NCBI GenBank assembly: GCA_027046625.1
Contig: JALTXX010000010.1
Coordinates: 1-15,383 of the forward strand
Source of the DNA: Candidatus Micrarchaeota archaeon
GTDB taxonomy: Archaea; Iainarchaeota; Iainarchaeia; JAADDC01
Length of the DNA: 15,383 bases
Reading direction: 5' to 3'
Position 1 is the stretch's first letter, and the number at the start of each line of letters is the position of its first letter. The notes under the pieces were generated by a model that was not told where the DNA came from, ran no database searches, and worked only from the letters and a program-made list of their open reading frames with translations. This document shows, piece after piece, positions 2 through 15,198 of the stretch. A program made the translations under genes and the position numbers.

Positions 2-3000
2 GTGGAGGGGAACAACCTGTTGGCGTGTTGGGTGGCCAACGGTGGGGAGAATGCCGGTACTGGAGGTGGTTACTTTGATGTGGAGGTGGAGGTGACGTAT
101 GAGAAGACGTTATCCACCACTACCCAGATCTGGGTAAGGGTTCCCTCTATACCTGCCGGGACTTCCACTATCTATATGTACTATGGAAACCCGGCAGCTA
201 CAGCCAATATACAGGATTTAAATACCTTTGAAAAGTTTGAGTCCTATACCATAACTCTACCTACCCAGACAGTGGCAGGTGAGTGGTTCTGGTTTGACTT
301 CAACTCACCCTTCAGCGGTACGCCTGTTGTTATTGCGCAGCCAGATACCACATACAACGGAGCCCAAGAGTTAACCTTAAGGTTGAGAGACATCAATACA
401 ACGGGATTCTACATTAGACAGCAGGAACCATCAAACAGAGACGACATCCACGCATCAGAAGCTGTTCACTACTTTGCTGCATTACCAGGCTGCTGGAAGA
501 TTAGAGGTCTAAACATCACATTCTGTGCAGGCAGATTTGAAACCAACATATGGGAACCCGGAGATGTGGTGTATACAGGACCATCAAATACGGTTACATT
601 CCCCATAACCTTTGCTACTACTCCAGTAGCTCACGTTCAGATGCAGGATTATAACTATACCGGCTTTGTAAGGACAAGAATATACTCCGTTTCCACAACA
701 GATCTCTCCACTAACCCGGAGCCAGAAGGGGGTATAACCACCGTTCCCTCCACATGGGTAACTCTAGGATGGATGGTCTTTGAACGAACAACCACCACAG
801 GCTATGAGAGTGGTATATATCCCTCTTGTGACGCAGATGTGGGTGCTGGTACATGGTGTACCATCACCTTCACCAACACATACACAAACCCATCCGTTAT
901 TATGCATGCCCAAACTGGTATAGGCGGTGATTCCTTCGGATTAAGAGGGAGAAATCTCTCCTCTACTTCGGTGGATGTAACAATAGAGGAGGATCAAACT
1001 GCAGACACGGAGCAGTCCCACGTAGCAGAGGACATTGGATACACAGTGATTGAGGAAGGCACATACTATCTTACAAAGGTAGTAAGTGATCCTCCGTCTT
1101 ACAACGTCGGGAGCGAAGAAACTGTAAACGGTTCCTATCTTTGGGTAAGGGAGTATCCCTTCAAAGGCTATCTAGTGGGTGTGATAGAATACAACGATAA
1201 TGGAAACTGGATCCTTGTAACAACAGACTTTAATACTTTCCAGACATGGGATGGCTTCGTAGACTTATCCTCCTTCTGGGTAGACTGGAACACGTGGGGA
1301 GCCAACCAGGGTATCTACAGAGCTAGGGTGTTTGCACACAACGTATATGGAGAAGAGTTAAACAGTTTTGGAACTCCCTTGGAGGCTTACTACATCTTTG
1401 AGGTAGGTCCGCCACCTATAGACTTTACTATTACTGACTTCCGCCTCTACGAAGCCAATACACGAACTGGAGGTACATTCATAGACTCTGGATTAGAAAA
1501 GACTTACTACCTTGAGGTAAACAAATCCTATCGCCTTGAATTCGATGTTACTCTAAGCCCCTATAGCTATGATTGGAATGTAGCAGACTCTAATGTATAT
1601 GCGTCCGAGCTAAATATCGACTGGAATGTGTACGATATCTGGTATACCATCTCTTCAGACTTTAATGGAGGTGTGTTCGATGGAAATGTAGAGTGGAATA
1701 CAGCTCAGGGAGGCACTGTTAGTGCGTCCCAGACAGCCACATTCAAATTCCTGCTCACTCCTACCAACGAGGGGGATTATAACCTCTACCTCTTCGTAGA
1801 GCATATACTTGACAGCGATTCTAACTGGGTTAGGATAGTATCCTTTGTGCCTGATACTGTTCCTCCCAATCCAATAGAATATAACTTGCTCAACATTGAT
1901 ACCAATCAAGTAGGCTGGGAGATAAACGTTATTAGAACATTTGAGCAGGCCAAAATCTATGCTACATGGGATGAGGACATTAACGAGGCTTATGTGGAGT
2001 ATAACTCTACCTCTCCCCTCCTAATAACCTCCACTATCGTCCCCTCTGGCAACTACACAGAGTACACGTTTAACATAACCAAGTTCTGGCTACTTGGCCC
2101 ACACGTTGCAAAGATATACGCCTCAGATCTATCAGGGAACTGGAGAAACGATCTGAACTACCTAATCTTCAACGTATGGGGATTGGCAGATGTTAATGGG
2201 GCAGAATTGAACACTTCCGCTGTATACGAAGGCAATACCGTAGAAATAAGGGCCACTGTGGTGGATAGAACAGATAATAACAGCCCAATATCTAACATTA
2301 TTGTTTATTTCGATATAAATGGAACGTTACTAACCGCCACAACAGACAGTAACGGAGAAGCTAACATTACATACACCTTCACATCCGCTGGTACCTATGA
2401 GATCAATGTATACACAGAGGGCAACCTTGCACGCTATTATCTCCCTGGATTGTCCCAAATCATCGAGCTTAATGTATACGAACTTGTACCTCCTGACTAC
2501 AACAATGTAACATATCCTACAAAGATACACAGAGGCGAAGTATTTGAGGTAAATGTGCAATGGATAGACAATCACAAAGTAACCGAGACAAACCTCTACG
2601 TTAGGAAAACACCCTCCGCACCATTCCTAACAGGATGGAACTATAGAAGGGCTATATACGTCTCCTCTCCAGCAGACATAAACGAATATCAGGTGTTGAT
2701 AGTATTCGACTCAAGAAGTCTCATACTGGATGGGAAGATGAACAGTGATTGTTCAGATATTAGAATTACCCTTGCGGATGGAACCACAACACTCCCCTAT
2801 TGGATAGAAAGAGGATGTGGCGAGACCAACACCTTTGTATGGTTTGAAGCAAATCTTACCAACGGAAGTAACATGTTCTACCTCTACTATGGTAATAACT
2901 CTGCTACTTCAGAGTCTAATATCGATGCCGTAATGATACCAGGTATTCACCTTACAACTGGCAGATGTACAGATGCAACCCTATGTAATTACACAGACAA

Positions 3001-5494
3001 TCACAATGAATTTGACCAGATAAGAGCTACGATGCCGTCCATTGATGGCAGCGGGTATGTAACGGAGGTAAACCATGATCTAAATCCCTTCGGATCAAGT
3101 GACAACTACTATTCCAGGTACAGATTCATATTTGTGGCCCCTACTGCAGGAACGTACACCTTCTACACAAACTCAGACGATGCATCGGAAGTAGGTGTTT
3201 GGATAGCCGATGGATATGGAGGTGGACTCACAACACCCTCTCCACATCCCTTCGGCGAACATAATGTAGTATCTTACTGGTATGGCGGTCATGGAGCAAC
3301 AACGGCATGTAGTACCGGTGGGGTTGCCGGCAGTATATCCCTTAACTCAGGAGATACCATATGGATAGACTACATGCAATCTGAATGGCTAGGAGGGGAG
3401 CTTGCCCAGTTGTGTGTATCCATAAATGGAGGTACTGCTCAGCTGGTATCTACATCCAACTTCTCCCTATATGCAAGGAAGTACATAACCCCCGATCCCT
3501 CTGTTACGGTAGGTGCAGAAGAAACCGATTGGGTATTGGTTGACACTAATACAAACATAGACTCCAACAATGTAGTTGTAACACTTGAATGGAATGTTCC
3601 AACTACTGAACCCCTTGGAGGTCACCAGTGGAAGGAAAGGGGGAAGGACTGGAGTGGTAATGTAACAGAAACTAATATCTATGAATTTAATGTATGGGGG
3701 TGGGCTATAGTAGCCGATTCCTACGTAGATCCTCCCTCTGTAAATCCAGATCAGAATGTTACCATGTTCTGTAAGGTCATTGACAAGGATACGAACATTC
3801 CACTCAACACATACGATGTAAACTTCTACTGGGATGGTAATTATCTAGGAACGGTAGAAACCAACATTGAAGGGTGGGCTAGCTTTGAATATAATGTTGG
3901 TAGTGTCACTGGTTTGCACTCATTTTCCTGTGTTATAGGCAGTGAACCCCTCATGCTATACGATCCCTATCCAGGACAAGATAGTGCAGTTGAAACGGTA
4001 AATGTTACAACATCTTCCGACACAGACCCGCCAGATGCGGTAGAGTGGAATGTGATAGACCTTAACCTTTCAAGGGAAGGTAAGGAGATCAACATATATA
4101 GAGGCGATGAGCTGAACTTCTGGAGTGTATGGGATGAGAATCTACAGAGGGCATGGGTAGAGTACAGCCCTGATGGTGTTACAGATACCAACTTAGAGGC
4201 TAATGTAGACCTTAACAGGGCATACGCAATTATGTACACATCCACATGGAGTAGAGGGCTTCACACCCTCCTAATGAGAGGCATGGATGATGCAAATAAC
4301 ATTTCCATCGATGCAAACTCTGCAGAGGTGAATGTATTCGTCTGGGTTACATCAAATGTAGAATGGGTATCACCCACAGGTACGGTGGATAGAACTGCAG
4401 ATATGAATGCTGTATGCAGGGTATACGAGGGAGATACAAATGTAGGCATCCCCAACTACACGGTGTACTTCTACTCCTCCTACGGAGGGGGTACATTCCT
4501 CGGATCTGCAGATACCAACAGCGATGGATACGCCACACTCTTTGTAGATCTAAACAACTACTACGGAACCTACACCTTCTGGTGTGAAATACAGGATGAT
4601 CTAACAAGATACTATGAGGCAAATATCTCCACAGACTCTACAACCATAACAGTGGCTGCCATAAACCTTAGAGCTACAAACGTGGATGTAAACATTACCT
4701 CTCCACCTAGAGAGGGAGATCTCATACTCATAGAGGGCAACATTTTGAACGAGTATGATCCTGTTGACACAAATGTTGAAATACGAATAGAAAGGAATGA
4801 AGGAAACTTTACACTGTTTGAGAGCTATAGAGTATTCCATAGCTTTGCCTCAGGAGAGGAGAATACATTTACATACGTATGGTCTACATATCCAGGAACA
4901 TACAGGATATTCATAGTGGCAGATCCGGACAATACAGTTTCGGAGGAGAATGAGCTGGACAACAACACCTACATAGAGCTAAATGTACAGTCTTGGACGG
5001 TACTCTATGGTGAGGTTAACCTTGATGCCGTACTCGGCGGGGGTGCAGACGTATTCTACAACTGGGAAGGACTTGACGGTATTGCTATCTTCTATGACAG
5101 CGATTACTCCATCGATATAGATCAGATCAACCCGCTAAACGATGTAAACGATCTAAGACTAGCTGATATTGTTCTTAACATGTATGGTAGTTGGGATTCC
5201 ATAGAGTACACCTACGATAGTAATAGAGATGGGAATATCGACAATTTCTACACCTTTATCATAGGTAACAGAGCAGTAACTATGCCTGTAATATATGAAG
5301 ATAATTGGCCCGTGGGCATAGGATTTGTAGGCACCGCCTTTGATGGCAACCAACCCATTGTATTTGTCACAGAAATACGCAAGGGGAGTAGCTGCTCATA
5401 TGGAGTATGTGACTACGTAGTAAGAATACCCGCGCTCCTTAGGGACCAATCCACTGCCACAAGCAGGATAGGTCTGAAGTTTATCCCTCAGTAG
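2..5494 (+). CDS. Giant modular extracellular adhesin-like protein, 5'-truncated: partial DUF2341 with 3 H-type-lectin-like repeats, 3 paired Ig-like repeats, DUF2341 with PA14 insert, CARDB, C-terminal domain
   Basis: The frame is open from the window edge, so the true start is probably upstream. T/N/D/V/Y-rich beta composition. DUF2341 motifs WNYRRAI..DCSDIRIT..LPYWIE..FYLYYGN and QIWVRVPSIP..IYMYYGN. PA14 motif FVAPTAGTYTFYTNSDDAS. CARDB motif GTYRIFIVADPDNTVSEENELDNN. No C-terminal TM helix. Confidence 0.85.
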   Translation: MEGNNLLACWVANGGENAGTGGGYFDVEVEVTYEKTLSTTTQIWVRVPSIPAGTSTIYMYYGNPAATANIQDLNTFEKFESYTITLPTQTVAGEWFWFDFNSPFSGTPVVIAQPDTTYNGAQELTLRLRDINTTGFYIRQQEPSNRDDIHASEAVHYFAALPGCWKIRGLNITFCAGRFETNIWEPGDVVYTGPSNTVTFPITFATTPVAHVQMQDYNYTGFVRTRIYSVSTTDLSTNPEPEGGITTVPSTWVTLGWMVFERTTTTGYESGIYPSCDADVGAGTWCTITFTNTYTNPSVIMHAQTGIGGDSFGLRGRNLSSTSVDVTIEEDQTADTEQSHVAEDIGYTVIEEGTYYLTKVVSDPPSYNVGSEETVNGSYLWVREYPFKGYLVGVIEYNDNGNWILVTTDFNTFQTWDGFVDLSSFWVDWNTWGANQGIYRARVFAHNVYGEELNSFGTPLEAYYIFEVGPPPIDFTITDFRLYEANTRTGGTFIDSGLEKTYYLEVNKSYRLEFDVTLSPYSYDWNVADSNVYASELNIDWNVYDIWYTISSDFNGGVFDGNVEWNTAQGGTVSASQTATFKFLLTPTNEGDYNLYLFVEHILDSDSNWVRIVSFVPDTVPPNPIEYNLLNIDTNQVGWEINVIRTFEQAKIYATWDEDINEAYVEYNSTSPLLITSTIVPSGNYTEYTFNITKFWLLGPHVAKIYASDLSGNWRNDLNYLIFNVWGLADVNGAELNTSAVYEGNTVEIRATVVDRTDNNSPISNIIVYFDINGTLLTATTDSNGEANITYTFTSAGTYEINVYTEGNLARYYLPGLSQIIELNVYELVPPDYNNVTYPTKIHRGEVFEVNVQWIDNHKVTETNLYVRKTPSAPFLTGWNYRRAIYVSSPADINEYQVLIVFDSRSLILDGKMNSDCSDIRITLADGTTTLPYWIERGCGETNTFVWFEANLTNGSNMFYLYYGNNSATSESNIDAVMIPGIHLTTGRCTDATLCNYTDNHNEFDQIRATMPSIDGSGYVTEVNHDLNPFGSSDNYYSRYRFIFVAPTAGTYTFYTNSDDASEVGVWIADGYGGGLTTPSPHPFGEHNVVSYWYGGHGATTACSTGGVAGSISLNSGDTIWIDYMQSEWLGGELAQLCVSINGGTAQLVSTSNFSLYARKYITPDPSVTVGAEETDWVLVDTNTNIDSNNVVVTLEWNVPTTEPLGGHQWKERGKDWSGNVTETNIYEFNVWGWAIVADSYVDPPSVNPDQNVTMFCKVIDKDTNIPLNTYDVNFYWDGNYLGTVETNIEGWASFEYNVGSVTGLHSFSCVIGSEPLMLYDPYPGQDSAVETVNVTTSSDTDPPDAVEWNVIDLNLSREGKEINIYRGDELNFWSVWDENLQRAWVEYSPDGVTDTNLEANVDLNRAYAIMYTSTWSRGLHTLLMRGMDDANNISIDANSAEVNVFVWVTSNVEWVSPTGTVDRTADMNAVCRVYEGDTNVGIPNYTVYFYSSYGGGTFLGSADTNSDGYATLFVDLNNYYGTYTFWCEIQDDLTRYYEANISTDSTTITVAAINLRATNVDVNITSPPREGDLILIEGNILNEYDPVDTNVEIRIERNEGNFTLFESYRVFHSFASGEENTFTYVWSTYPGTYRIFIVADPDNTVSEENELDNNTYIELNVQSWTVLYGEVNLDAVLGGGADVFYNWEGLDGIAIFYDSDYSIDIDQINPLNDVNDLRLADIVLNMYGSWDSIEYTYDSNRDGNIDNFYTFIIGNRAVTMPVIYEDNWPVGIGFVGTAFDGNQPIVFVTEIRKGSSCSYGVCDYVVRIPALLRDQSTATSRIGLKFIPQ

Positions 5495-5543
5495 AATGTA
5501 ACCACCCAGTAATCGTTAATTAACCTTGTGGGAAGGCAATACC

Positions 5544-5551
5544 TTTAAGTA
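5544..5551 (+). promoter_or_regulatory. Putative TATA box of the archaellin gene
   Basis: TTTAAGTA in the intergenic gap, about 50 nt before the likely GTG, leaving a short leader that contains a strong SD. Confidence 0.5.
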
Positions 5552-5585
5552 TGGGAAATACTAACTCTAATTGACCCTATATAAA

Positions 5586-5594
5586 GGAGGGTGA
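5586..5594 (+). promoter_or_regulatory. Shine-Dalgarno site of the archaellin
   Basis: GGAGGGTGA, 5 nt before GTG at 5600. Confidence 0.65.
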
Positions 5595-5599
5595 AAGAC

Positions 5600-6217
5600 G
5601 TGAAGGGACAGGTAGCAATCGGAACCCTTGTGGTATTTATAGCGCTGGTGATAACAGCGGCCCTTGCAGCTGGAGTACTTGTGGCTGCCACACAGAATGC
5701 CCAGAGCAAAGCTGAGGCTGTATACGGAAAAACGCTGGAAAAGGCCACGTATGCCTTTAAGTTCAGAGGTGTAGAGGGTCTTACAACGGCAGACGACAGC
5801 AACATAGAGTATGCCATCTTCTATATAGAGCTCGCCCCAGGTTCCGGCGAAATAGACCTAGAGGATGTTACAACCATTTGGAGGGCAGCAAACGGAGCAG
5901 AGTACGACGAATATGACTTTAATACAACCTCTGTAGATCTGAACACAGCGGCACTATCCAGCTCCAATCCATTCACCGCAACACTGGCAGCTGGTAAGTT
6001 TTACGTGGTTGGAAACAGAACATCTGCCAACGAGGCAACACCAGACAGGTATGTAGAATCTGGTGAGCTTTACGCCATAGCAATAAAGCTTCCAGCAACT
6101 CTTGACGAAGGTGAAGACTGGCAGATAACAGTAAGGGCACCCTATATCCAGGATACTTCAGTAGATGGTATAGCACCTGAGGTGCTACAAAGCGGCAGAA
6201 TAGAGAAGTTGGCATAA
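5600..6217 (+). CDS. flaB: Archaellin, probably the major filament subunit
   Basis: Class III signal peptide and conserved helix MKG|QVAIGTLVVFIALVITAALAAGVLV. Archaellin motif IELAPGSGEIDL. Start moved from 5591 to GTG 5600 on SD spacing. Has its own promoter, SD and terminator. Confidence 0.9.
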   Translation: MKGQVAIGTLVVFIALVITAALAAGVLVAATQNAQSKAEAVYGKTLEKATYAFKFRGVEGLTTADDSNIEYAIFYIELAPGSGEIDLEDVTTIWRAANGAEYDEYDFNTTSVDLNTAALSSSNPFTATLAAGKFYVVGNRTSANEATPDRYVESGELYAIAIKLPATLDEGEDWQITVRAPYIQDTSVDGIAPEVLQSGRIEKLA

Positions 6218-6223
6218 ATAAAA

Positions 6224-6250
6224 TCTCTTCCTTTCCCTTTTCTTTTCCAT
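6224..6250 (+). terminator. Pyrimidine/oligo-T archaeal terminator of flaB
   Basis: tctcttcctttcccttttcttttcc just after the stop, in the gap between convergent flaB and flaH. Confidence 0.55.
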
Positions 6251-6943
6251 TTATATTGCAAAAGCCGAGATATCTATTATCAACCCAAACCTTGGCTCCA
6301 CACGGAACTTTATAACCTTTGTGACATCCCTTTCTGCCTTCCAACGCTTCACATAGATTACATTCTTTATATCGTCACCCACAACCTCCTGTTTTAATTC
6401 TAGGTAATTATCTGCAACCTCTCTTAGCTGTTCCATAAGCTTCACATCCATATTACCAGGATCGTAGGTGATAATGATGCTCCTTCCCTTCTGGATAACC
6501 TTCTTCAAGAAATTGATAAACTGGAACACTTGAGACTCCCTTAATGGCTCATCGGGCAGCATAAGGTTAATGGAATCTATAATAGTAACTTCATTAATGA
6601 AAAGGAACTCCGCTCTCATCAAACGTTCAAGCAGGTCCTTCTTCTTTTTAAGCTTCTTCGCAGAGGGTGGAAAAACGGGGAAGAACATCAGTCTCCTCTT
6701 TACTAGGTAGGGTAGCACATTGTATCCTAGCGATTGCATCTGTCTAAGGAATCCCTTGGTGGATAGCTCCGTGGAAAGATAAGTTACTGTATGTCCGTTT
6801 TCTAGCAATCCAAAGGCTATTCGTTGTGACAGTATACTCTTTCCTGATCCATCTTCTCCCTCTATGATGGTTATGGTTCCTGGTGCTATGCCACCGCCTA
6901 GTCTCCTTCCTAACTCATCTCTCTCCAGATTTATAGAGTACAT
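6251..6943 (-). CDS. flaH: Archaellum KaiC/RecA-like nucleotide-binding protein ArlH/FlaH
   Basis: N-terminal RDELGRRLGGGI, Walker A GEDGSGKS, TYLSTE, Walker B IIDS, C-terminal IKFRVEPRFGLIIDIS. SD AGGTGA overlaps the upstream stop. Confidence 0.95.
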   Translation of the reverse strand: MYSINLERDELGRRLGGGIAPGTITIIEGEDGSGKSILSQRIAFGLLENGHTVTYLSTELSTKGFLRQMQSLGYNVLPYLVKRRLMFFPVFPPSAKKLKKKKDLLERLMRAEFLFINEVTIIDSINLMLPDEPLRESQVFQFINFLKKVIQKGRSIIITYDPGNMDVKLMEQLREVADNYLELKQEVVGDDIKNVIYVKRWKAERDVTKVIKFRVEPRFGLIIDISAFAI

Positions 6944-6950
6944 CGGTGTC

Positions 6951-7646
6951 TCACCTGCTCATAATATCCTTTATTGATAGGATGTATTCCAGCACTCTAT
7001 TGTGTTCTTCTGGGTCTAATTGCACATTTACCATCTCTGGCTCCAGATCTACCCGTATTCCCTCTGCATACCTCTTTAGTACATCTGCTACTTCCTCCGA
7101 TATCCACCTAATCTCCACATAGTATCTTAGTAGTTCCTCTATTCCACTGTGGCCCACCTTTTCTACCATAAAACGTGCCCAATCCATTAGCACCTCTATC
7201 ACCTTGGGGTTGGTTAGATCTACATAGGAAAGCACCGTTTCTTCCTGCGATTCTTTAGTTTCCTTCTTCTCAACCTCTACCACCACTGGTTTTTCTTCCA
7301 CTTCTTGCACTCTCTCCTCCATTTTTTCCTTTCTCAACGGCAGCGCCTTTTCCTCCTCATCAAGGAAGGGGTTTAGCTGGTTCATTACTATCTCATATAT
7401 GGAAGCCAACTGGCTCATAGTCTTTTCCATCTCTTCCAACTTCCCATTAACACTCTTTACGCTCTCTTTAACCACATTCAACGCATCTTCCAATCTCTCC
7501 ACCTTCTTCTCCAAGTCCTCTACCACGATATTAAGGTCTCTTCCCTCATTCTTTGGCTGTGTCTGCTGAGGCGCTGGTCCTATGGATATAGCTGGTTTTG
7601 GGGGCGGTGTTTGAGGGGTTTCCTTCTTTTTTAGGAAGTCAAACAC
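6951..7646 (-). CDS. flaCDE: Fused ArlC-ArlD/E (FlaCDE) switch/scaffold protein
   Basis: Coiled coil ending in FlaC-type LASIYEIVMNQLNPF. C-terminal FlaD/E-type WARFMVEKVG..LLRYYVEIRWISEEV..LDPEEH. GTG start with a perfect SD. Confidence 0.85.
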   Translation of the reverse strand: MFDFLKKKETPQTPPPKPAISIGPAPQQTQPKNEGRDLNIVVEDLEKKVERLEDALNVVKESVKSVNGKLEEMEKTMSQLASIYEIVMNQLNPFLDEEEKALPLRKEKMEERVQEVEEKPVVVEVEKKETKESQEETVLSYVDLTNPKVIEVLMDWARFMVEKVGHSGIEELLRYYVEIRWISEEVADVLKRYAEGIRVDLEPEMVNVQLDPEEHNRVLEYILSIKDIMSR

Positions 7647-7650
7647 ATTC

Positions 7651-7658
7651 TCACCTCC
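7651..7658 (-). promoter_or_regulatory. Shine-Dalgarno site for flaCDE
   Basis: GGAGGTGA on the minus strand, overlapping the upstream TAG, 4 nt before GTG. Confidence 0.8.
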
Positions 7659-8428
7659 TAAGGGAATATTTTCACTATCTTTCCTTCAAATCCTCTTGGG
7701 AGCATGAGCTCCTTTGATTCCTTATATCCTTGGGCATGTCCCATCTCTAAAGTTATAGAGGATGCTGGATAGAGGGGGGATCTCAATCTGTAAAAGATCA
7801 TTATCTCCTGATCCCTTAGAAGAGATACGGTATCTCCTTTATCATAACAATCCGTCCAAAGTACAGTATAGAAGGATCCTATACGGGGATCTGACGAGTT
7901 TGGAGGAAATGGGTCCATAACATAAGTGATATAGTCCAAGGAGTACCTGTTTAATCTCCTCATAGCATTGATAAGAGTGGCTCTGCAGGCTGGTTGCGGA
8001 GGAGAATCACCATTTGAAATATAGTCTGCTATAATAATTAGTTCGTTCCTTTCTGGATCACCATTTACATCTGAGAACTCTGTAGGAAGATCTTCTGGTT
8101 TTACGTATCTAATACCTTCTAAAGCCTCATCTTCCGTAATCACACTTAAGGTAGTTTTCTCAAGATTCATTGGATTGGATCCGGGATAGAGAGCAGCCTT
8201 TATAAGCAAATGGGTCACACACCTCTCAGATCCACAGATATTTGTTACACCCTTCACCTCCTTTATCATAACTCTATCCAATAACATCCTTTCCTGTTCC
8301 TTTTGAATTGATCTTGCCTTCACTCTCAATTCATCTGCCGTTTGCACCAATAGTATTGCCACTACAACGGCTGTAAGTATAATGGCGATCATCACAAGAA
8401 TGGTGCCTATTCCACTCTGGCCTTCCAT
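7658..8428 (-). CDS. Divergent archaellin-family protein (minor archaellin-like)
   Basis: MEG|QSGIGTILVMIAIILTAVVVAILLVQTA class III-like N-terminus. ALYPGSNPMNLEKT resembles the archaellin xPGSxxIDL motif. Central insertion with cysteines. Confidence 0.8.
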   Translation of the reverse strand: MEGQSGIGTILVMIAIILTAVVVAILLVQTADELRVKARSIQKEQERMLLDRVMIKEVKGVTNICGSERCVTHLLIKAALYPGSNPMNLEKTTLSVITEDEALEGIRYVKPEDLPTEFSDVNGDPERNELIIIADYISNGDSPPQPACRATLINAMRRLNRYSLDYITYVMDPFPPNSSDPRIGSFYTVLWTDCYDKGDTVSLLRDQEIMIFYRLRSPLYPASSITLEMGHAQGYKESKELMLPRGFEGKIVKIFP

Positions 8429-8452
8429 TCCCTAAGATGTGGGTGCTGCCCG

Positions 8453-8459
8453 TTTAAAA
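8453..8459 (-). promoter_or_regulatory. Internal TATA box giving a leaderless archaellin-like/flaCDE/flaH transcript
   Basis: TTTTAAA on the minus strand, 24 nt before ATG 8428. No SD present, and an in-frame stop lies two codons upstream of the ATG. Confidence 0.6.
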
Positions 8460-8488
8460 GATGGGTGTGAACTCTTCAAACAATTTAA

Positions 8489-10183
8489 CTACCCCGTAGT
8501 AATTTCAACAGCTCCAGAGGTTGGTGTAATTAAGGCTACTGCTATATCCGTTAAGTAGTACACAATGAGCAGTCCTAACACAAGGATTACATAGTGGAAG
8601 GTTGCTCCCACCTTCAATCCACCGTCTAACACTTTTATCATAATAGATAGTATCACTGCTTCCACCGCAAAAATATACACCATCATATTAACCATGGGCC
8701 ATAGATTTACATTGAAATTCAGGGCAAAATTTATCATGGCTGCTGCTTCTCCCTCCATTATAGAAGCAAAGGTATTCTTTAGCATGTCAAACATGGAGGC
8801 TAATGCCTTGACAGCCAGAAACACACCCAACGCAACTCCCCAGTAGGTTCCATATATCATACCTCTTGCCCCTCCTGCCGTCTGGGATCTTAGCTTCCTT
8901 GCATCCAGCAAAACATGTAGCTGATCTCCAATAATGTTTCCTGTAGCCTTTGGATCTGCACCTGCATAAAGGGCTTTTACGAACAGCTCATTAAACTTTG
9001 TGAGTATGGCAGAACCTAACTCCTTAGAAAACAGTCTAAAGGAAGTAAATACATTCCTTGTAATGGCAAGTCTCCTGTATAATCGTTCTAGTGCTTCGTT
9101 CATCCCTAGATAAGTATGTCTCCTGAGTCTTCTTACAACGGGGATTACTGCTCCCTCCCTTATTTGTACCAGTTCACCAAAGGTTCGTATAAAGGGCAAG
9201 TATGACTGCTCCCTCCTTCTTATCAACATCTCCGCCCTCCTTGATAGGTATGCAGGAACGATAAGAGGCACTACAGTTAATGCAACAGTTATGATGGGAT
9301 CGAGTCCCATTAACAGTCCTGCAGCAAATACTATTAGGGATAGAACCACTCCTATGGCTGTAGCAATAATGGCAGTCATGTGTTCCGGAGATATGTCGGG
9401 AAAGTCATTTGCAAGCTTGTCTGGAGGCACGGAAGCCCTTGCAGCCACAAATATAACCACATTCACTAATAGAATGGAACCTGCGTAGGCTGCATACAGG
9501 TATACCTCAGGTACTGGAAAGAATATGGGTAGCATTGCTATAAACGCCAATATAAACGCTATGGCCACCATTAAAGCCGAAAATAGCTCTGCCACTGTAC
9601 TTATCTTGTATATGGATTCTTGGTACATAGTGTAAATACTTCTAAGTATGTCCCTGAACTGGGTTTGGAAGAATAACACCACATCCTCACCGTACTCCAC
9701 CACCTGAGACAACCTAGCCAGAAAATCAGAAAATACCGGAGATGGAGTTGTATCCGCTACTACTTTACAGGCCTTTGAATAACCCAGCTTCCAATCCTTA
9801 GCAAGGTGATACAACCTTTTCATCTCCTTGGATATCTCTCCAAACTCCTTTGTTTCTGCCATTGTACTAAAGAATTCATCATAACTTGTCTTTGAGGTGG
9901 CCATAGAGTTCATGAACACCACGAAGAAAGGGAAGTTCTTGTCTATATCCTCCTTTTTTACATAAAGAGGAATATTCATCGATAGTATTGCCAGCAATAA
10001 CGATAGCACAAGCAAAAACGGAATGAGAAAGATGATGAAGTCAAGAGAGAATATGCCCAGCTCTACAAATGGGTAAAGAAGCAGCATAAATACGATGAAG
10101 ATAGAAAACCACGCAATACCTATGTATACCACCAACTCCCTCAAGGAGGTTATACCCAGCGCGTGGATAAGTTTATCCATCAT
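8489..10183 (-). CDS. flaJ: Archaellum membrane platform protein ArlJ/FlaJ
   Basis: 564 aa polytopic membrane protein with two GspF/TadC-like cytoplasmic domains (FGEISKEMKRLYHLAKDWKLGYSKACK..TPSPVFSDFLARL; RRREQSYLPFIRTFG). ATGA overlap with the upstream ATPase. Confidence 0.92.
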   Translation of the reverse strand: MMDKLIHALGITSLRELVVYIGIAWFSIFIVFMLLLYPFVELGIFSLDFIIFLIPFLLVLSLLLAILSMNIPLYVKKEDIDKNFPFFVVFMNSMATSKTSYDEFFSTMAETKEFGEISKEMKRLYHLAKDWKLGYSKACKVVADTTPSPVFSDFLARLSQVVEYGEDVVLFFQTQFRDILRSIYTMYQESIYKISTVAELFSALMVAIAFILAFIAMLPIFFPVPEVYLYAAYAGSILLVNVVIFVAARASVPPDKLANDFPDISPEHMTAIIATAIGVVLSLIVFAAGLLMGLDPIITVALTVVPLIVPAYLSRRAEMLIRRREQSYLPFIRTFGELVQIREGAVIPVVRRLRRHTYLGMNEALERLYRRLAITRNVFTSFRLFSKELGSAILTKFNELFVKALYAGADPKATGNIIGDQLHVLLDARKLRSQTAGGARGMIYGTYWGVALGVFLAVKALASMFDMLKNTFASIMEGEAAAMINFALNFNVNLWPMVNMMVYIFAVEAVILSIMIKVLDGGLKVGATFHYVILVLGLLIVYYLTDIAVALITPTSGAVEITTG

Positions 10184-11808
10184 TCTATCACCACCGGGAA
10201 GGGGAGGCCTTCCAAGCCAAACTCTATATACCTACTTACCAACTCATACACCTTGAAGTAGTCCAAATATCCTCTCTCCACCATCTCCTTTAGTATGGCA
10301 GCTCTTGTTCTCAATTCCTGGTATACCTCCTCCTTTTCCATTCCAAGAGTGGGAGCTACCACCTCCTCTAATACATAGGAGTTATACCATGCCTTGAACT
10401 GATGGGTATCGGTTACCGGATCCCAGCTAAAGGCTTCCCTTGTTACAATACTACCAGTAGGCTGGTGATACCTCTCTATCTCTGAAATGGATATCATTCT
10501 CCTATAGTTTTTTCCTTCCCTCATAACAGACTGCTGAACTGCCACGATTTGAACATTGGGGATGTACTCCTTCGGTACATTTATGGGAGGACCTGATATT
10601 CTTCTTATAAAGGAATTAACGCTACCTGCGTGAAATGTGGACATAACGGGGTGACCTGTTTGCATAGCTTGAAATGCCACATATCCTTCTGCTCCTCTTA
10701 TCTCACCCACGATGATATAGTCTGGTCTAGCTCTAAGGGCTGCCTTGAGAAGGTCGAACATGTCTGCTCTTCCCTCTGCTGTCACAGTTCTTACCCAGTT
10801 CTCATGGGGCACATAAATCTCTGGTGTATCTTCAACGGAGTATATCCTTGCATGGGGTTCTATAAATGTTGTCAAAGCCTTTAATGTAGTTGTTTTTCCA
10901 GCAGCTGTCTCTCCACATATGAAGGCTGAAGAACCGGCCTCTATTGCTAGCCAGAAGTATGCGGCCTCCTCTGGGGATATAGTATTCCACTTTATAAGTT
11001 GAGTAACAGATATGGGAACCTTGGTAAACTTTCTAATGGTAAAGGATGGTCCCCTGATAGATATGTCCCTTGAAAATATTACATTTAACCTTGATCCGTC
11101 TGGCATGGCAGCATCCACAATGGGCCTAACCTCTGTGGCTGGTTTATTGAGCAGTTCTGTTAGCCTAAAGATAAAATCCTCCAGTTCTTCCTCATCCTTA
11201 AAAGACACATTAGTTTCCATGGATCCGAAGATTTTGTGTACTATCCATATGTTGTTAGTTCCTACACATGAGATATCCTCGATATAAGGGTCTCTCATAA
11301 ACACCTCTATGGTGGAATACTGGGCCAATTCCCTTATGAGTAGCTCCCTTATAAAACGTCGTTTCTCTTTTGGCACATAAACCTTACCAAGAAGTACTTC
11401 GTTCAATAATCTATTGAATCCCTCCTCGCTGTGCATAAGCTCTTCTGTAAGCTTTATAAGCAGGGATATAAACTCCTCCTGAGAGGTAGGTATCTTTTCC
11501 ATGAGAGAAACCTTGCTTGTAATGCGATCGTATAATCTCCTGAAGTACTGAAGGTCTTCTCTTGTGTAAGATGGTTCTATTGCAATGTATTTGGGATCTT
11601 CGCCTTCCTTTTTCATTATATGAACAAAGTATGGCTCTCCAACAGGGTATATAACATTTATCTCATCCATAACAGCTACCTTTAGATCCAAGGGTATCTC
11701 CGTTACAAATATTGGTCTCTTCCATGTTCTTTGCAGTCTGTTAACATATTCATTTAGGTGCGGGTTTCTCTTAAGTGCCCTTCTGAATGCGTCCTCCTCA
11801 TGTTTCAC
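10180..11808 (-). CDS. flaI: Archaellum motor ATPase ArlI/FlaI, copy 2
   Basis: NPHLNEY N-terminus, DPYIEDISC, Walker A GETAAGKTT, Asp box VEDTPEI, Walker B YIIVGEIRG, His box TGHPVMSTFH. GTG start overlaps the previous TGA. Confidence 0.93.
   Translation of the reverse strand: MKHEEDAFRRALKRNPHLNEYVNRLQRTWKRPIFVTEIPLDLKVAVMDEINVIYPVGEPYFVHIMKKEGEDPKYIAIEPSYTREDLQYFRRLYDRITSKVSLMEKIPTSQEEFISLLIKLTEELMHSEEGFNRLLNEVLLGKVYVPKEKRRFIRELLIRELAQYSTIEVFMRDPYIEDISCVGTNNIWIVHKIFGSMETNVSFKDEEELEDFIFRLTELLNKPATEVRPIVDAAMPDGSRLNVIFSRDISIRGPSFTIRKFTKVPISVTQLIKWNTISPEEAAYFWLAIEAGSSAFICGETAAGKTTTLKALTTFIEPHARIYSVEDTPEIYVPHENWVRTVTAEGRADMFDLLKAALRARPDYIIVGEIRGAEGYVAFQAMQTGHPVMSTFHAGSVNSFIRRISGPPINVPKEYIPNVQIVAVQQSVMREGKNYRRMISISEIERYHQPTGSIVTREAFSWDPVTDTHQFKAWYNSYVLEEVVAPTLGMEKEEVYQELRTRAAILKEMVERGYLDYFKVYELVSRYIEFGLEGLPFPVVIE
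10189..10221. repeat. 33-nt exact direct repeat, copy A (3' end of flaI copy 2)
   Basis: caccaccgggaaggggaggccttccaagccaaa, identical to 11814-11846. Confidence 0.95.
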
Positions 11809-13376
11809 TCTACCACCACCGGGAAGGGGAGGCCTTCCAAGCCAAAGTAGTAATACTTCTTTATGACATCAAACACATCTCCATACTTCCTGATCTCCTG
11901 TTTTCTCATCTCACTAAGTACGGCTGCTCTCTCATCAAGATCCTTGTAGATATCTCTCGGGTCTGCATACCCCTTGTAGAGGGCTATCTTGCTCTCAAGA
12001 ATATAGGAGTTGTATCTTCCCAGGAACTCTATCCTATCGTAAAGGGGGTCCCACCGAAACACCAACCTAGTCAGTATTCCCTTCCCCTCTTGGTATCCCT
12101 CTATCTCATACACACCCACAACTCTCCTTATAATCTGCCTCCCTCTCCTAAACGAGCGCTGAATAACTACCACATTCAGGTTTGTAATATAGGGGAGAGG
12201 GATATTAATAGGTGGGCCGCTCAGACGTTGTATAATTTTCTTTATATCTCCACCGTGAAACGTAGACATAACAGGGTGGCCTGTTTGCATTGCCTGGAAT
12301 GCTATATTACCTTCCTTCCCTCTTATTTCCCCTACAACAATGTAGTCTGGTCTTGATCTTAGAGATGCCTTGAGAAGATCGAACATGTCTGCCCTTCCTT
12401 CCCTTGCTACGGTTGCCTGCCAATTCTTATGCGGCACGAAAAGTTCTGGTGTATCTTCAACAGAGTATATCTTTGCATCTGGTTTGATAAATGCGGAGGC
12501 TGCTCTCATAGTTGTGGTCTTTCCTGAGGCTGTCGGACCGCAGAAGAATACACTCATACCATTTTCTATAACCAACCAAAGGTATGCAAGCAGCTCTGGG
12601 GAAGCTGTACCAAGCTCTAAAAGATGTATTACACTCATTGGATCTCTCTCTACCAATCTTATGGAAATAGAGGTACCTTCCTTGGAAACCTCTCTTCCAT
12701 ATATGATGTTTACTCTCGAACGTGTTTCTGGAAGGATTCCATCCACTATAGGGTGTGTAACGCTTACCCTCTTGTTCATCCTTAACCCTAATCTAAAGGC
12801 AAAGCTATCCACTTCTTCAAGGGAGGAGAACTCTATGTTAGATCTCATGTTACCCCAAACCTTGTGCACAACATAGGTATGTGTTCTCGCATTTCTCACA
12901 TCTTCAAGATAATCGTCCTTAAAGAAGCTGTCCCACATTTCGTAACCTATAATATTCTTCACCAGCATAAAGAAAACTGCATCTTTGTAGGATGGGTCAA
13001 GCTTTAACTGCTTAAAGGCTTCTTCCATAAGATTTCTGAGAATTTCTGGAGTGGGTTCGTGAGCTTTAACCTCCGAGGCCAGCTCCGTAACCTTTTCCAA
13101 TACCATTTCATATACTTCAGGTGCCTCCACTTTGGGTTCTATGAGATGGTAAATCAGTTCTCCTGTATCCCTATCACGGTAAACATGAACAAAAACGTCC
13201 TCAGATATGGGATAAATTATGTTTGGATCCCTTATCTTGGAGAGGTTTCTATCAAGCTCCTTGTAGAATGTAGGTCTACCGTATATTTTTGACATATTGG
13301 CAACATGGAGTCTTAGATGTGGATATTTTGAGAGAAGAGTATTAACTTCCGCCTCTGTCATCTTTTGTGCTACCAT
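11805..13376 (-). CDS. flaI: Archaellum motor ATPase ArlI/FlaI, copy 1
   Basis: YPHLRLH..PNIIYPISEDVFVHV FlaI-type N-terminus, Walker A GPTASGKTT, VEDTPEL, YIVVGEIRG, TGHPVMSTFH. Confidence 0.9.
   Translation of the reverse strand: MVAQKMTEAEVNTLLSKYPHLRLHVANMSKIYGRPTFYKELDRNLSKIRDPNIIYPISEDVFVHVYRDRDTGELIYHLIEPKVEAPEVYEMVLEKVTELASEVKAHEPTPEILRNLMEEAFKQLKLDPSYKDAVFFMLVKNIIGYEMWDSFFKDDYLEDVRNARTHTYVVHKVWGNMRSNIEFSSLEEVDSFAFRLGLRMNKRVSVTHPIVDGILPETRSRVNIIYGREVSKEGTSISIRLVERDPMSVIHLLELGTASPELLAYLWLVIENGMSVFFCGPTASGKTTTMRAASAFIKPDAKIYSVEDTPELFVPHKNWQATVAREGRADMFDLLKASLRSRPDYIVVGEIRGKEGNIAFQAMQTGHPVMSTFHGGDIKKIIQRLSGPPINIPLPYITNLNVVVIQRSFRRGRQIIRRVVGVYEIEGYQEGKGILTRLVFRWDPLYDRIEFLGRYNSYILESKIALYKGYADPRDIYKDLDERAAVLSEMRKQEIRKYGDVFDVIKKYYYFGLEGLPFPVVVE
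11814..11846. repeat. 33-nt exact direct repeat, copy B (3' end of flaI copy 1)
   Basis: Identical to 10189-10221. Confidence 0.95.
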
Positions 13377-13401
13377 CCTATGAATTATGGAGGATACCTC
13401 T

Positions 13402-14091
13402 TTAAGGAGGATACAGCTTCACTAGAGAGGATCTAAATACCTCCGGCACAAAGAATTCCACTGTAGACGTGCTACCATCATTTACAATAAGTTTAATTCT
13501 TACCTTATCACCAGGTAGTAACCCATCTGGTGGCATATAATATATTACTGCCAGCTGCTTTGGATATATGTGCAGATCGTCTTTCTCGTTGTTACATAAT
13601 ATCCATGCAACGGTATAGTATTCTCCACTAGTAAAGAGGGTATACTCCTCTGCCTTTCCCAGTTCGTTCCAGAACCCCTCAGTTATAATTTCAAACACTC
13701 TCCTGTCAGTATCTTCACACGGATCGCCCGGAGCGCTGTTATCTGCATCACTTGCATCCAAGAAAGTAGCTGACTTTATTACGTTATTCGTAGTGAATTC
13801 CAGTACTGTGTTTCTAAGATCCACAGGGTATCCACCCGAGGCTATGCGAACCGCTATCCTTAGAAGGCGAATTCTGTTGTAGGTGGGAGAGGATGTATTG
13901 GTATCCACAAATCCGTAAACACTATCTATGGTGAGCTTTCTCATAAATTTAGCTTGTGACTCTTTCTGGGTTATTTCTGCCTGGTTTTTCAGAGAGTTAG
14001 CAGCACTCAGTAACACCACGGCAGCTATAGAAGCAATCAACACGATCACAATGAATATTATGAGTGTCGAAATCCCTATATCTCCTCTCAT
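13402..14091 (-). CDS. flaB: Archaellin-family protein (minor archaellin-like), first gene of the operon
   Basis: MRG|DIGISTLIIFIVIVLIASIAAVVLLSAA class III N-terminus and VRIASGGYPVDL motif. Start moved from 14148 to ATG 14091 because a TATA box lies inside the longer ORF's 5' part; 14100 is an alternative start. Confidence 0.85.
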   Translation of the reverse strand: MRGDIGISTLIIFIVIVLIASIAAVVLLSAANSLKNQAEITQKESQAKFMRKLTIDSVYGFVDTNTSSPTYNRIRLLRIAVRIASGGYPVDLRNTVLEFTTNNVIKSATFLDASDADNSAPGDPCEDTDRRVFEIITEGFWNELGKAEEYTLFTSGEYYTVAWILCNNEKDDLHIYPKQLAVIYYMPPDGLLPGDKVRIKLIVNDGSTSTVEFFVPEVFRSSLVKLYPP

Positions 14092-14114
14092 CGCCCCCAT
14101 TAGGTTATGTAGTA

Positions 14115-14121
14115 TTTTAAA
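14115..14121 (-). promoter_or_regulatory. TATA box of the archaellum operon (leaderless)
   Basis: TTTAAAA on the minus strand, 23 nt before ATG 14091. Confidence 0.6.
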
Positions 14122-14137
14122 TGTGGGAATGTGAGTG

Positions 14138-14157
14138 TTACCATCCAAGGATGGTAA
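14138..14157. promoter_or_regulatory. Perfect inverted repeat, candidate transcription-factor operator
   Basis: TTACCATCC-AA-GGATGGTAA, between two divergent TATA boxes. Confidence 0.55.
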
Positions 14158-14193: not shown

Positions 14194-15198
14194 ATGCACC
14201 TAAAAAAGGTGGAAGCAAAAGGGGCGTTACACGTTTTGGATGATCTATCTCCCTATGCATGGGAAAAACTAAGTAGGTTTGAGTATAATGGTAAAAAGGG
14301 TTTTGAGGGTGTGAAATCCTTCCTTATGGAAACACATGGGTATAGGAATGTAGTTTTTGAACCGTACGGAATATATAAGGCGATCACAGGGGCTCTCAAT
14401 TCTGTTATAAGAGATGTAAAACATAATGCATTCATCATAGTTGGCCGATCTGGCCTTGACCATATTCATAGAAAAGGAATTAGAGCGCCCTTTGAAGTAC
14501 ACAAAAAGAGAAAAAATATATTCTGGCTTAACGTCAAAAGAGAATCCCAGATAAATCCCGCTTCAAAAGATCCTATGTCAGCAGAGTTTCTGGCTGGAAT
14601 CCGTCACATTGTAACTCAGCTTCCCAAAAAGTCTAGAGTGTTTGTATTTGACGATATTATAAGAACAGGTAGTGTGATGAAGAACATTGCAAGGGCTTTG
14701 GCAGACTTTGCCCGCAAAGAGGGCAAGGAACCTCCTCAGGTTATACCGCTTTCTCTTATGGTAAGTGCACCTGCATTCATAGCGCGACATGATATCATAT
14801 CCAAGAAGGAGTTTAAGCAGGTAAGAAATATTAAGAAGCTCGCTGAAGACCTTTTCAAATACATAAATGTACATCACGGTATAATTCAAGGTAACAAAAA
14901 CAAGCTTCAAAAGGTGCTCCGCCAAGAGCATGGAATACCCACCAACAGGCTAAGTTCTATCATAAAGAAGTTCGAAAACATGCACGCACCCATAACAGGG
15001 ATAATATCTGATCATATCTATGTAAACACACTATCCCACGAGCTTAGCGACACGGTAGAAATGCTCCTGGAAAGGGGTAGCAGCGGAGACATTATAAACA
15101 AGCTAGCAGACATTGTTGCGGAGAGGGAGAACCGCCTAGAGCCACTAAAGGCAGAAACCAGAGAGTTTGTTATCATGGCACCTCGAACAAGGGTGTAA
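14194..15198 (+). CDS. Basic hypothetical protein with a type I phosphoribosyltransferase-like domain
   Basis: PRPP-binding-loop motif RVFVFDDIIRTGSVM and upstream AFIIVGRSG strand/loop. K/R/H-rich. Own promoter. Confidence 0.7.
   Translation: MHLKKVEAKGALHVLDDLSPYAWEKLSRFEYNGKKGFEGVKSFLMETHGYRNVVFEPYGIYKAITGALNSVIRDVKHNAFIIVGRSGLDHIHRKGIRAPFEVHKKRKNIFWLNVKRESQINPASKDPMSAEFLAGIRHIVTQLPKKSRVFVFDDIIRTGSVMKNIARALADFARKEGKEPPQVIPLSLMVSAPAFIARHDIISKKEFKQVRNIKKLAEDLFKYINVHHGIIQGNKNKLQKVLRQEHGIPTNRLSSIIKKFENMHAPITGIISDHIYVNTLSHELSDTVEMLLERGSSGDIINKLADIVAERENRLEPLKAETREFVIMAPRTRV

Follow-up and report, generated by a model that had tools for sequence, protein, structure and literature searches.

A [D/E]-x-N motif in exported proteins of a DPANN archaeal family as a candidate lineage-specific N-glycosylation sequon

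The window analysed here is a stretch of 15,383 nucleotides that makes up the entire 15.4-kb contig C10 of a 652-kb, 94% complete genome labelled Candidatus Micrarchaeota archaeon. Its first third is taken up by one open reading frame (ORF) on the plus strand (positions 2-5494), which encodes 1830 amino acids (aa) of a giant surface protein and is open at the contig 5' end; the N-terminus of the protein is missing because the contig begins within the gene. Matches above the Pfam cut-off to DUF2341 (two matches), Big_1 and CARDB give the protein an adhesin-like domain set. It is adjoined by an archaellum cluster with three archaellin-family genes, FlaH, FlaC/D/E, FlaJ and two FlaI. We examined the asparagines of the surface protein, more than half of which follow an Asp or Glu at the second residue upstream (the motif [D/E]-x-N). 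The analysis confirmed this enrichment, which is very strong, limited to exported proteins and found in one lineage only, and we discuss it below as a candidate N-glycosylation sequon. The features that bear on it are the following.

2-5494, plus strand: giant surface protein, 1830 aa by ORF translation, with 89 [D/E]-x-N sites.
293-430, plus strand: weak H-type lectin-like match (residues 98-143; Pfam PF09458, E 7.5e-4, 20.0 bits, below the 24-bit cut-off).
1142-2641, plus strand: chain of all-beta domains modelled with AlphaFold2 (residues 381-880), with 34 motif sites.
1571-1699, plus strand: dense run of sites cited in the preliminary description of the window (residues 524-566; site list).
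2234-2422, plus strand: Big_1, bacterial Ig-like domain (residues 745-807; Pfam PF02369, E 3.1e-10, 40.4 bits).
2747-2935, plus strand: DUF2341, the better of two matched stretches (residues 916-978; Pfam PF10102, E 8e-22, 77.9 bits).
4184-4216, plus strand: three sites in a row, DTN-LEAN-VDLN (residues 1395-1405; site list).
4766-4966, plus strand: CARDB domain (residues 1589-1655; Pfam PF07705, 24.7 bits).
5216-5242, plus strand: a site in the calcium-loop-like context D-x-N-x-[DN]-G (residues 1739-1747), one of just three.
5591-6217, plus strand: archaellin (Pfam PF01917, E 6.7e-24), in which 3 of 8 Asn lie in [D/E]-x-N and two in N-x-S/T.

Among the 155 Asn residues of the surface protein, 89 had Asp or Glu at position -2 (46 D and 43 E), while 5000 shuffles of the protein gave a mean of 20.0 such sites (standard deviation 4.0, maximum 36). 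Only Glu (4.62-fold) and Asp (4.28-fold) were enriched at -2, with Pro next at 1.07-fold, and Ser/Thr were not enriched at +2. The canonical sequon N-x-S/T (Pro-free) numbered 29, compared with a mean of 25.7 in shuffles (1.12-fold); 13 of the 89 sites combined a -2 acid with a +2 Ser/Thr, and the other 76 had no Ser/Thr at +2. Pro was found at x in 0/89 sites and at +1 in 1/89. The sites extend along the whole protein, from nucleotides 5-13 to nucleotides 5342-5350, and are sparser in residues 1-400 (7/23 Asn). In the two FlaI proteins 2/18 and 4/18 Asn were in the motif, 6/36 together. These exact counts reproduced those of the preliminary description, which had been made by hand from the letters of the window: 89 of 155 Asn with an upstream acid, no Pro at x, N-x-S/T close to chance at about 29, some 13 sites with both flanks, FlaI at background and 3 of 8 Asn in the plus-strand archaellin. 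Its figure of about 22 expected sites has to be lowered to about 20, because Asp plus Glu make up 12.95% of the protein and not 14-15%, and the strong excess over chance that it reported stands. A separate observation concerns the Asn codons AAT and AAC, which were used 45 and 44 times for motif Asn and 21 and 45 times for other Asn (Fisher p 0.02).

The contrast between secreted and cytoplasmic proteins, proposed in the preliminary description as a check, was then found genome-wide. We called 686 ORFs by a simple longest-ORF rule and sorted them by hydrophobic segments. Results showed that 71 ORFs with an N-terminal transmembrane (TM) segment only, the surface protein excluded, held 196 [D/E]-x-N sites versus 92.9 ± 8.9 expected (z 11.5), whereas 474 ORFs without TM segments held 516 versus 543.6 in shuffles (0.95-fold, z -1.3); the 72 multi-TM ORFs gave z 2.0. 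When all 400 residue pairs at i and i+2 were ranked in the exported ORFs, D-x-N and E-x-N took the top two places. Considering ORFs with at least eight Asn, 31 of 42 exported ones were above expectation, compared with 80 of 211 in the cytoplasmic class. Apart from the surface protein, the ten ORFs with the highest enrichment include LVIVD-repeat, DUF2341, DUF11/CARDB and Laminin_G_3 proteins, and four have no Pfam match; several folds are therefore involved.

An explanation that leaves the Asn unmodified is a physico-chemical adaptation of the proteins themselves, in which the acid-Asn pair, fixed in the lineage, would serve as surface hydrogen-bond pairs, in cation binding, in the solubility of acidic proteins poor in Lys and Arg, or in protection of Asn from deamidation. 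The surface protein is indeed acidic, with 1.3% Lys and 3.2% Arg, and hydrophobic residues stand at -3, -1 and +1 around the pair, as on an amphipathic strand; D-x-N also reaches 2-5 times expectation in further class families, regardless of the motif in their AglB. We nevertheless regard this adaptation as unlikely. The cytoplasmic proteins of the same genome, at 0.95-fold, do not share the excess, and proteins of the same domain type lack it as well. When 1.84 billion cluster representatives were searched by HMMER with residues 381-1560, 2835 matches were returned, of which the best 150 were scored together with the query. Four proteins of this set, the query and three close kin, carried 57-62% of their Asn within the motif; in the remaining 147 of 151 the share was at most 21% (median 9.4%), with no intermediates. 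The enrichment is therefore not an effect of the fold, and the outcome that the preliminary description had named as fatal to its proposal, a similar enrichment in homologous domains of unrelated taxa, was not observed. In 57 of the same 151 proteins N-x-S/T accounted for at least 40% of Asn, up to 79%.

The protein model points the same way. The AlphaFold2 model of residues 381-880 (alignment A2) is a string of all-beta domains with a mean predicted local distance difference test score (pLDDT) of 83.8. The Asn of its 34 motif sites is placed in a strand at 19 and in a loop at 15, in proportion to the model composition (strand fraction 0.56). Together with the finding that only 3 of the 89 sites stand in the calcium-loop-like context D-x-N-x-[DN]-G, this spread leaves the motif without any single structural context. 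The order of the pair matters too: only acid at -2 with Asn at 0 is enriched, Thr, Ser and Gln at -2 are not, and neither are acids at +2.

Proline provided a further distinction within the same proteins. Pooling 107 surface ORFs of the family gave 927 motif Asn, with Pro 14 times at -1 and 13 times at +1, where 45 were expected at each position, and 1491 other Asn, with Pro 62 times at -1 and 116 times at +1, where 72.4 were expected at each. Pro at +1 is thus excluded for motif Asn and enriched for other Asn, which again argues against a purely physico-chemical role. Pro exclusion beside the acceptor Asn is described as a hallmark of oligosaccharyltransferase (OST) substrates in an excerpt of PMC8342417. 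The motif accordingly shares with OST acceptors the restriction of its enrichment to exported proteins and the exclusion of Pro, and differs from them in having no preference for a hydroxy residue at +2.

The acid and the Asn also behave as one unit in evolution. In 1171 columns aligned with the orthologue from the same genus (58% identity), 53 of 75 motif Asn were retained, compared with 16 of 38 other Asn (p 0.004). The -2 residue stayed acidic in 50 of 52 sites where the motif Asn was kept and in 9 of 21 where it was lost (p 1e-6), compared with 67 of 90 for other Asp/Glu, and Asp and Glu were swapped in 13 of the 50 conserved sites. Acid and Asn thus persist or disappear as a pair, and this comparison shows the unit to be under selection.

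More distant homologues suggest what the motif has replaced. Two proteins with 31-33% identity, P0003 (labelled Woesearchaeota) and P0004 (labelled Altiarchaeota), had [D/E]-x-N at 0.9-1.4 times expectation and N-x-S/T at 2.24-fold (P0003, 150/324 Asn) and 2.93-fold (P0004, 96/160 Asn). In the BLASTP alignment with P0003, 21 of 65 motif Asn lay opposite an Asn and one lay opposite a [D/E]-x-N; 15 of the 65 lay opposite the Asn of an N-x-S/T sequon, where 3.3 were expected (p 2e-7). For P0004 the corresponding figure was 9 of 61, with 4.2 expected (p 0.02). By this alignment evidence, [D/E]-x-N apparently fills the niche that N-x-S/T holds in homologues. Among archaellins, 28 close ones contained 78 [D/E]-x-N sites versus 31.3 expected, and 92 distant ones, mostly haloarchaeal by name, were poor in both motifs and gave no information.

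We then compared relatives of the same class by sampling loci around CARDB or DUF2341 matches, using the same crude export classes. E-x-N was enriched 2.29- to 5.39-fold in all ten family genomes with enough sequence (G000, G001, G003-G009 and G011) and ranged from 0.27 to 1.96 in 21 genomes of 15 other families, none of which (0/21) was enriched; the highest values outside the family were 1.96 (G027, 5 versus 2.5) and 1.79 (G026). The first CARDB sampling had been low for G001 (E-x-N 1.34) and G008 (1.59), where a rule for lengths of at least 700 aa had let in TM-less ORFs of 874 and 903 aa, which outweighed the rest of the 'exported' sets. Prompted by these outliers, a choice to be weighed in reading the values, G001, G008 and G004 were re-sampled around DUF2341 matches with the N-terminal-TM rule only, and then gave 3.55, 3.14 and 3.02. 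The per-genome tables leave out G010, G013, G030, G036 and G024, which had too little exported sequence, and G002 and G012, which were unsampled.

The Asp half of the motif has a wider distribution. D-x-N was at 2.3-5.3 times expectation in family genomes and, among the other families, below 1 in G038 and G020. Outside the family, -2 Asp was associated with +2 Ser/Thr (0.179 versus 0.126, p 4e-4), whereas the two positions were independent inside it (probability of D 0.19 given S/T and 0.21 given no S/T). The coupling seen in the other class families may be a sign that archaea too have an extended sequon of bacterial type, D-x-N-x-S/T, and class-wide D-x-N was possibly the precursor state of the motif of the family. 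Surface ORFs with D-x-N at 2.8-5.1-fold and no excess of E-x-N were noted at L067 (G025), L061-L062 (G034), L055-L056 (G028), L138 (G016) and L113 (G014).

The candidate reader of the motif lies outside the window. One STT3 match was found in the genome (G000:C16:42959-45319, 786 aa; Pfam PF02516, 35.4 bits versus a cut-off of 24.5), and no Pfam match to PMT_2 was found there; one GT4 gene and three GT2 genes are present as well. The AlphaFold2 model of this AglB had a mean pLDDT of 92.5 and a predicted template modelling score of 0.91, and Foldseek placed STT3/AglB/PglB chains at all of ranks 1-19 (E 2e-15 to 6e-11, TM-score about 0.5), as is appropriate for a GT-C fold. In a 26-sequence alignment from the class, E147, D149 and E442 (in T-V-V-E) were invariant and D33 nearly so; guided by the part of PMC8342417 that deals with them, we read these acids as the probable DXD and TIXE/SVSE motif residues.

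The acceptor pocket of this AglB is altered. Its segment NWWGLGHWL aligns with SWWDYGYQI of human STT3A/B, so that WWGLG stands for WWDYG and the Asp is lost, which is the kind of change that the preliminary description had suggested looking for. Every one of the 13 family AglBs read had WW[G/S/N], with WW[S/N]IG in 8/8 from the sister genus and WWG[LVIM]G in 5/5 from the genus itself, whereas WWD was kept in 12 of 16 from other families. A wider search for AglB relatives returned only six proteins, all WWGxG. Excerpts of PMC10859629 and PMC8342417 describe hydrogen bonds from WWD side chains to the +2 Ser/Thr, and the same portion of PMC10859629 calls the motif strictly conserved. For the second motif of the pocket, DK/MI, no D-x-x-K was found after AglB Y-D-Y-I-L-W in the pairwise alignment with human STT3A/B or in the class consensus, a region too divergent for confident alignment. 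Candidates for a basic residue that contacts the acid are K453, invariant in the class, and the Lys or Arg gained at 170, 301, 645 and 733 in the family only; His542 is likewise family-specific.

Further observations were made on AglB. Those of the family are about 100-150 residues longer before the TIXE motif (G000:C16 L002, residues ~256-430), and the extra stretch is modelled as hydrophobic helices plus a small beta hairpin at 325-341. Several class families have G, S or N where the WWD Asp would stand, in the forms WWGSG, WWSYG, WWNNG, WWNQG, WWGEG, WWNEG and SWGYG (AglB loci L003-L032, L116, L123 and L130-L132). A DNA-level search for the exact pattern W-W-D-x-G-H-W was positive in 104 of 201 class genomes, a rough map that undercounts WWD because WWDQGHI exists (G033). 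G040 has a second, shorter STT3-like gene (G040:C19:18257-18685, in a 533-aa frame) beside its WWGSG AglB.

Taken together, we consider it somewhat probable that [D/E]-x-N is a lineage-specific N-glycosylation sequon, a linear acceptor motif of this DPANN family read by its WWD-less AglB. The stronger statement, that an STT3-family OST has moved its acceptor rule from a +2 hydroxyl to a -2 carboxylate and made [D/E]-x-N the new sequon, is plausible but stops short of being probable. Exported proteins would be threaded past the single membrane OST, AglB/STT3, encoded on G000:C16. The AglB of the family, as the putative motif reader, would pick Asn chiefly by the carboxylate at -2 and not by a hydroxyl at +2, and a glycan would be attached to the motif Asn. 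Selection would then fill surface proteins with Asp/Glu-x-Asn, as those of other archaea are filled with Asn-x-Ser/Thr. The acid might be recognised by a basic residue acting like Arg331 of PglB; alternatively, the Trp-Trp pocket, rid of its Asp, might bind the carboxylate, with the register or polarity of the peptide altered. A stepwise origin is conceivable, starting from the class-wide -2 Asp preference coupled to +2 Ser/Thr outside the family, continuing with loss of the WWD Asp, and ending, in one family, with acceptance of Glu and independence from +2.

Several findings weigh against this sequon, or at least against its simplest form. ORFs were called by home-made means and assigned to the exported or cytoplasmic class by a crude criterion of hydrophobicity. 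D-x-N is raised elsewhere in the class (5.14-fold in G016, 4.24 in G025, 3.91 in G014, 3.29 in G034 and 2.83 in G028), and kin that keep WWD are among the enriched genomes (G025 and G034 at the values just given, G018 at 2.07-fold). Conversely, AglBs with an Asp-less WW-x occur outside the family in G028 (WWNNG), G032 and G026 (WWSYG), G037 (WWNQG), G040 (WWGSG), G027 (WWGEG) and G014 (SWGYG), in which E-x-N was just 0.66-1.96; G028, G032 and G037 have a single STT3, no second one having been found. The WWD Asp is also lost in G024 and G021, G014 belongs to the sister family, and no such genome with data showed E-x-N enrichment. The AglB change is thus only loosely linked to the Glu trait. Because all family genomes are kin, moreover, the association of the Glu trait with the AglB type counts as one evolutionary event.

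The alignments with distant homologues and the canonical sequon itself add to these reservations. Against P0003, 21 of 65 motif Asn and 17 of 38 other Asn were matched by an Asn, so that the motif brought no better conservation; among Asn-Asn pairs, sequon Asn were modestly preferred (15/21 versus 6/17, p 0.048), and for P0004 this preference was not significant (9/17 versus 5/13). N-x-S was enriched 1.45-fold in the exported ORFs of the genome. In the 28 close archaellins N-x-S/T occurred 68 times versus 39.8 expected (1.71-fold), and these proteins have conserved columns of both kinds, the two canonical ones being N-K-T and N-R-S/T. AglB may therefore be able to use either flank, or the two rules may operate side by side. 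Hence the proposal in the preliminary description of a lineage-specific OST or other Asn-modifying system that reads a -2 acid gains from the homologues without enrichment, the export contrast and the sole STT3 without the WWDYG Asp, while its clause that only the -2 residue is read does not agree with the N-x-S excess and the two conserved canonical columns of the archaellins.

The motif might instead be read or selected by another extracellular process, with the AglB change coincidental; candidates would be a different Asn- or carboxylate-directed modification, a family-specific maturation or attachment enzyme, or recognition by a partner or host. In favour of such a process are the loss of the WWD Asp in at least seven non-family genomes without E-x-N enrichment, the N-x-S/T conserved in family archaellins, by which AglB may still use the canonical sequon, and the other ways in which the family differs, for example archaella in 13/14 versus 0/27 genomes. 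However, no candidate enzyme was found for it in the genome beyond the single STT3 match, PMT_2 being negative, and exclusion of +1 Pro, confinement to exported proteins and location where N-x-S/T formerly stood are what an OST acceptor would be expected to show. No modification that follows a [D/E]-x-N rule is known to us, and we rate this process as less likely still than physico-chemical adaptation. As for the idea that repeats or composition within one protein create the signal as an artefact, its repeated Ig-like domains do make the 89 sites non-independent, yet the homologue comparison and the excess in 71 further exported ORFs (z 11.5), across different folds and in ten family genomes, refute this idea and leave it a negligible likelihood.

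The neighbourhood of the surface protein gene has features of its own. Archaellum genes and a giant surface protein, here within positions 2-14148, are adjacent in at least three further family genomes (L034 in G005:C40, L036 in G006:C13 and L043 in G011:C11), so that the pairing is syntenic. PF01917 archaellin genes were present in 13 of 14 family genomes, this one included, and in none of 27 sampled genomes from 15 other class families; of the class families searched, apparently none but this one is archaellated. NCBI gives the label 'Candidatus Diapherotrites archaeon' to a 63%-identical homologue of the surface protein and to a 64%-identical archaellin. The two FlaI-type ATPase genes (T2SSE) lie in tandem on the minus strand at 10180-11808 and 11805-13376, with a 4-base overlap. 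Beyond them, on the plus strand, a Lys-rich ORF of 334 aa (14194-15198) had no Pfam match at E 0.01; its translation includes a stretch that may resemble the phosphoribosyl pyrophosphate-binding loop of phosphoribosyltransferases.

Among known systems, the motif resembles the Campylobacter PglB sequon D/E-X-N-X-S/T, with which it has in common a -2 acid, acceptance of both Asp and Glu, disfavoured Pro at X and an STT3-type OST; PglB itself came at rank 13 in the AglB profile search. It differs in that PglB needs a +2 Ser/Thr and keeps WWD, whereas here 13 of 89 sites have +2 Ser/Thr, the WWD Asp is lost and the host is archaeal. In Campylobacter lari PglB, Arg331 is salt-bridged to the acid at -2, according to PMC4894442 and PMC10859629. 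With canonical archaeal N-X-S/T glycosylation the proposed system would share a single-subunit AglB and its targets, surface proteins and archaellins; it differs in that N-X-S/T in this surface protein is at chance and the enrichment lies upstream of Asn. Calcium-binding D-x-[DN]-x-[DN]-G loops of the EF-hand, dockerin and thrombospondin types also hold D-x-N, but few of the present sites fit them, Glu is as frequent as Asp and half of the sites are in beta strands.

Relaxed OST acceptor sites are represented by the eukaryotic N-X-C and reverse sequons. These, like the sites of Desulfovibrio PglB, relax the -2 position or tolerate rare +2 substitutes, unlike the pattern described here. Desulfovibrio PglBs without the -2 rule indicate, in the part of PMC4894442 concerned with them, that STT3-family enzymes can shift their rules for flanking residues. 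In the literature searched, no report was found of a -2 carboxylate replacing the +2 hydroxyl as the main determinant, nor of an archaeal [D/E]-x-N sequon, with Nakagawa et al. 2024 (J Bacteriol, on DPANN N-glycosylation) lying outside the search. N-x-S/T has been treated as universal for STT3-type enzymes, and a lineage with about 60% acid-marked Asn in its surface proteins and a WWD-less sole OST would, if the sequon is real, be the first natural case of a re-written sequon. It would give direct access to the way in which OSTs recognise substrates and possibly a short orthogonal glycosylation tag for glycoengineering. For the DPANN archaea themselves, prediction of glycosites would change, since counting N-x-S/T would miss most of them.

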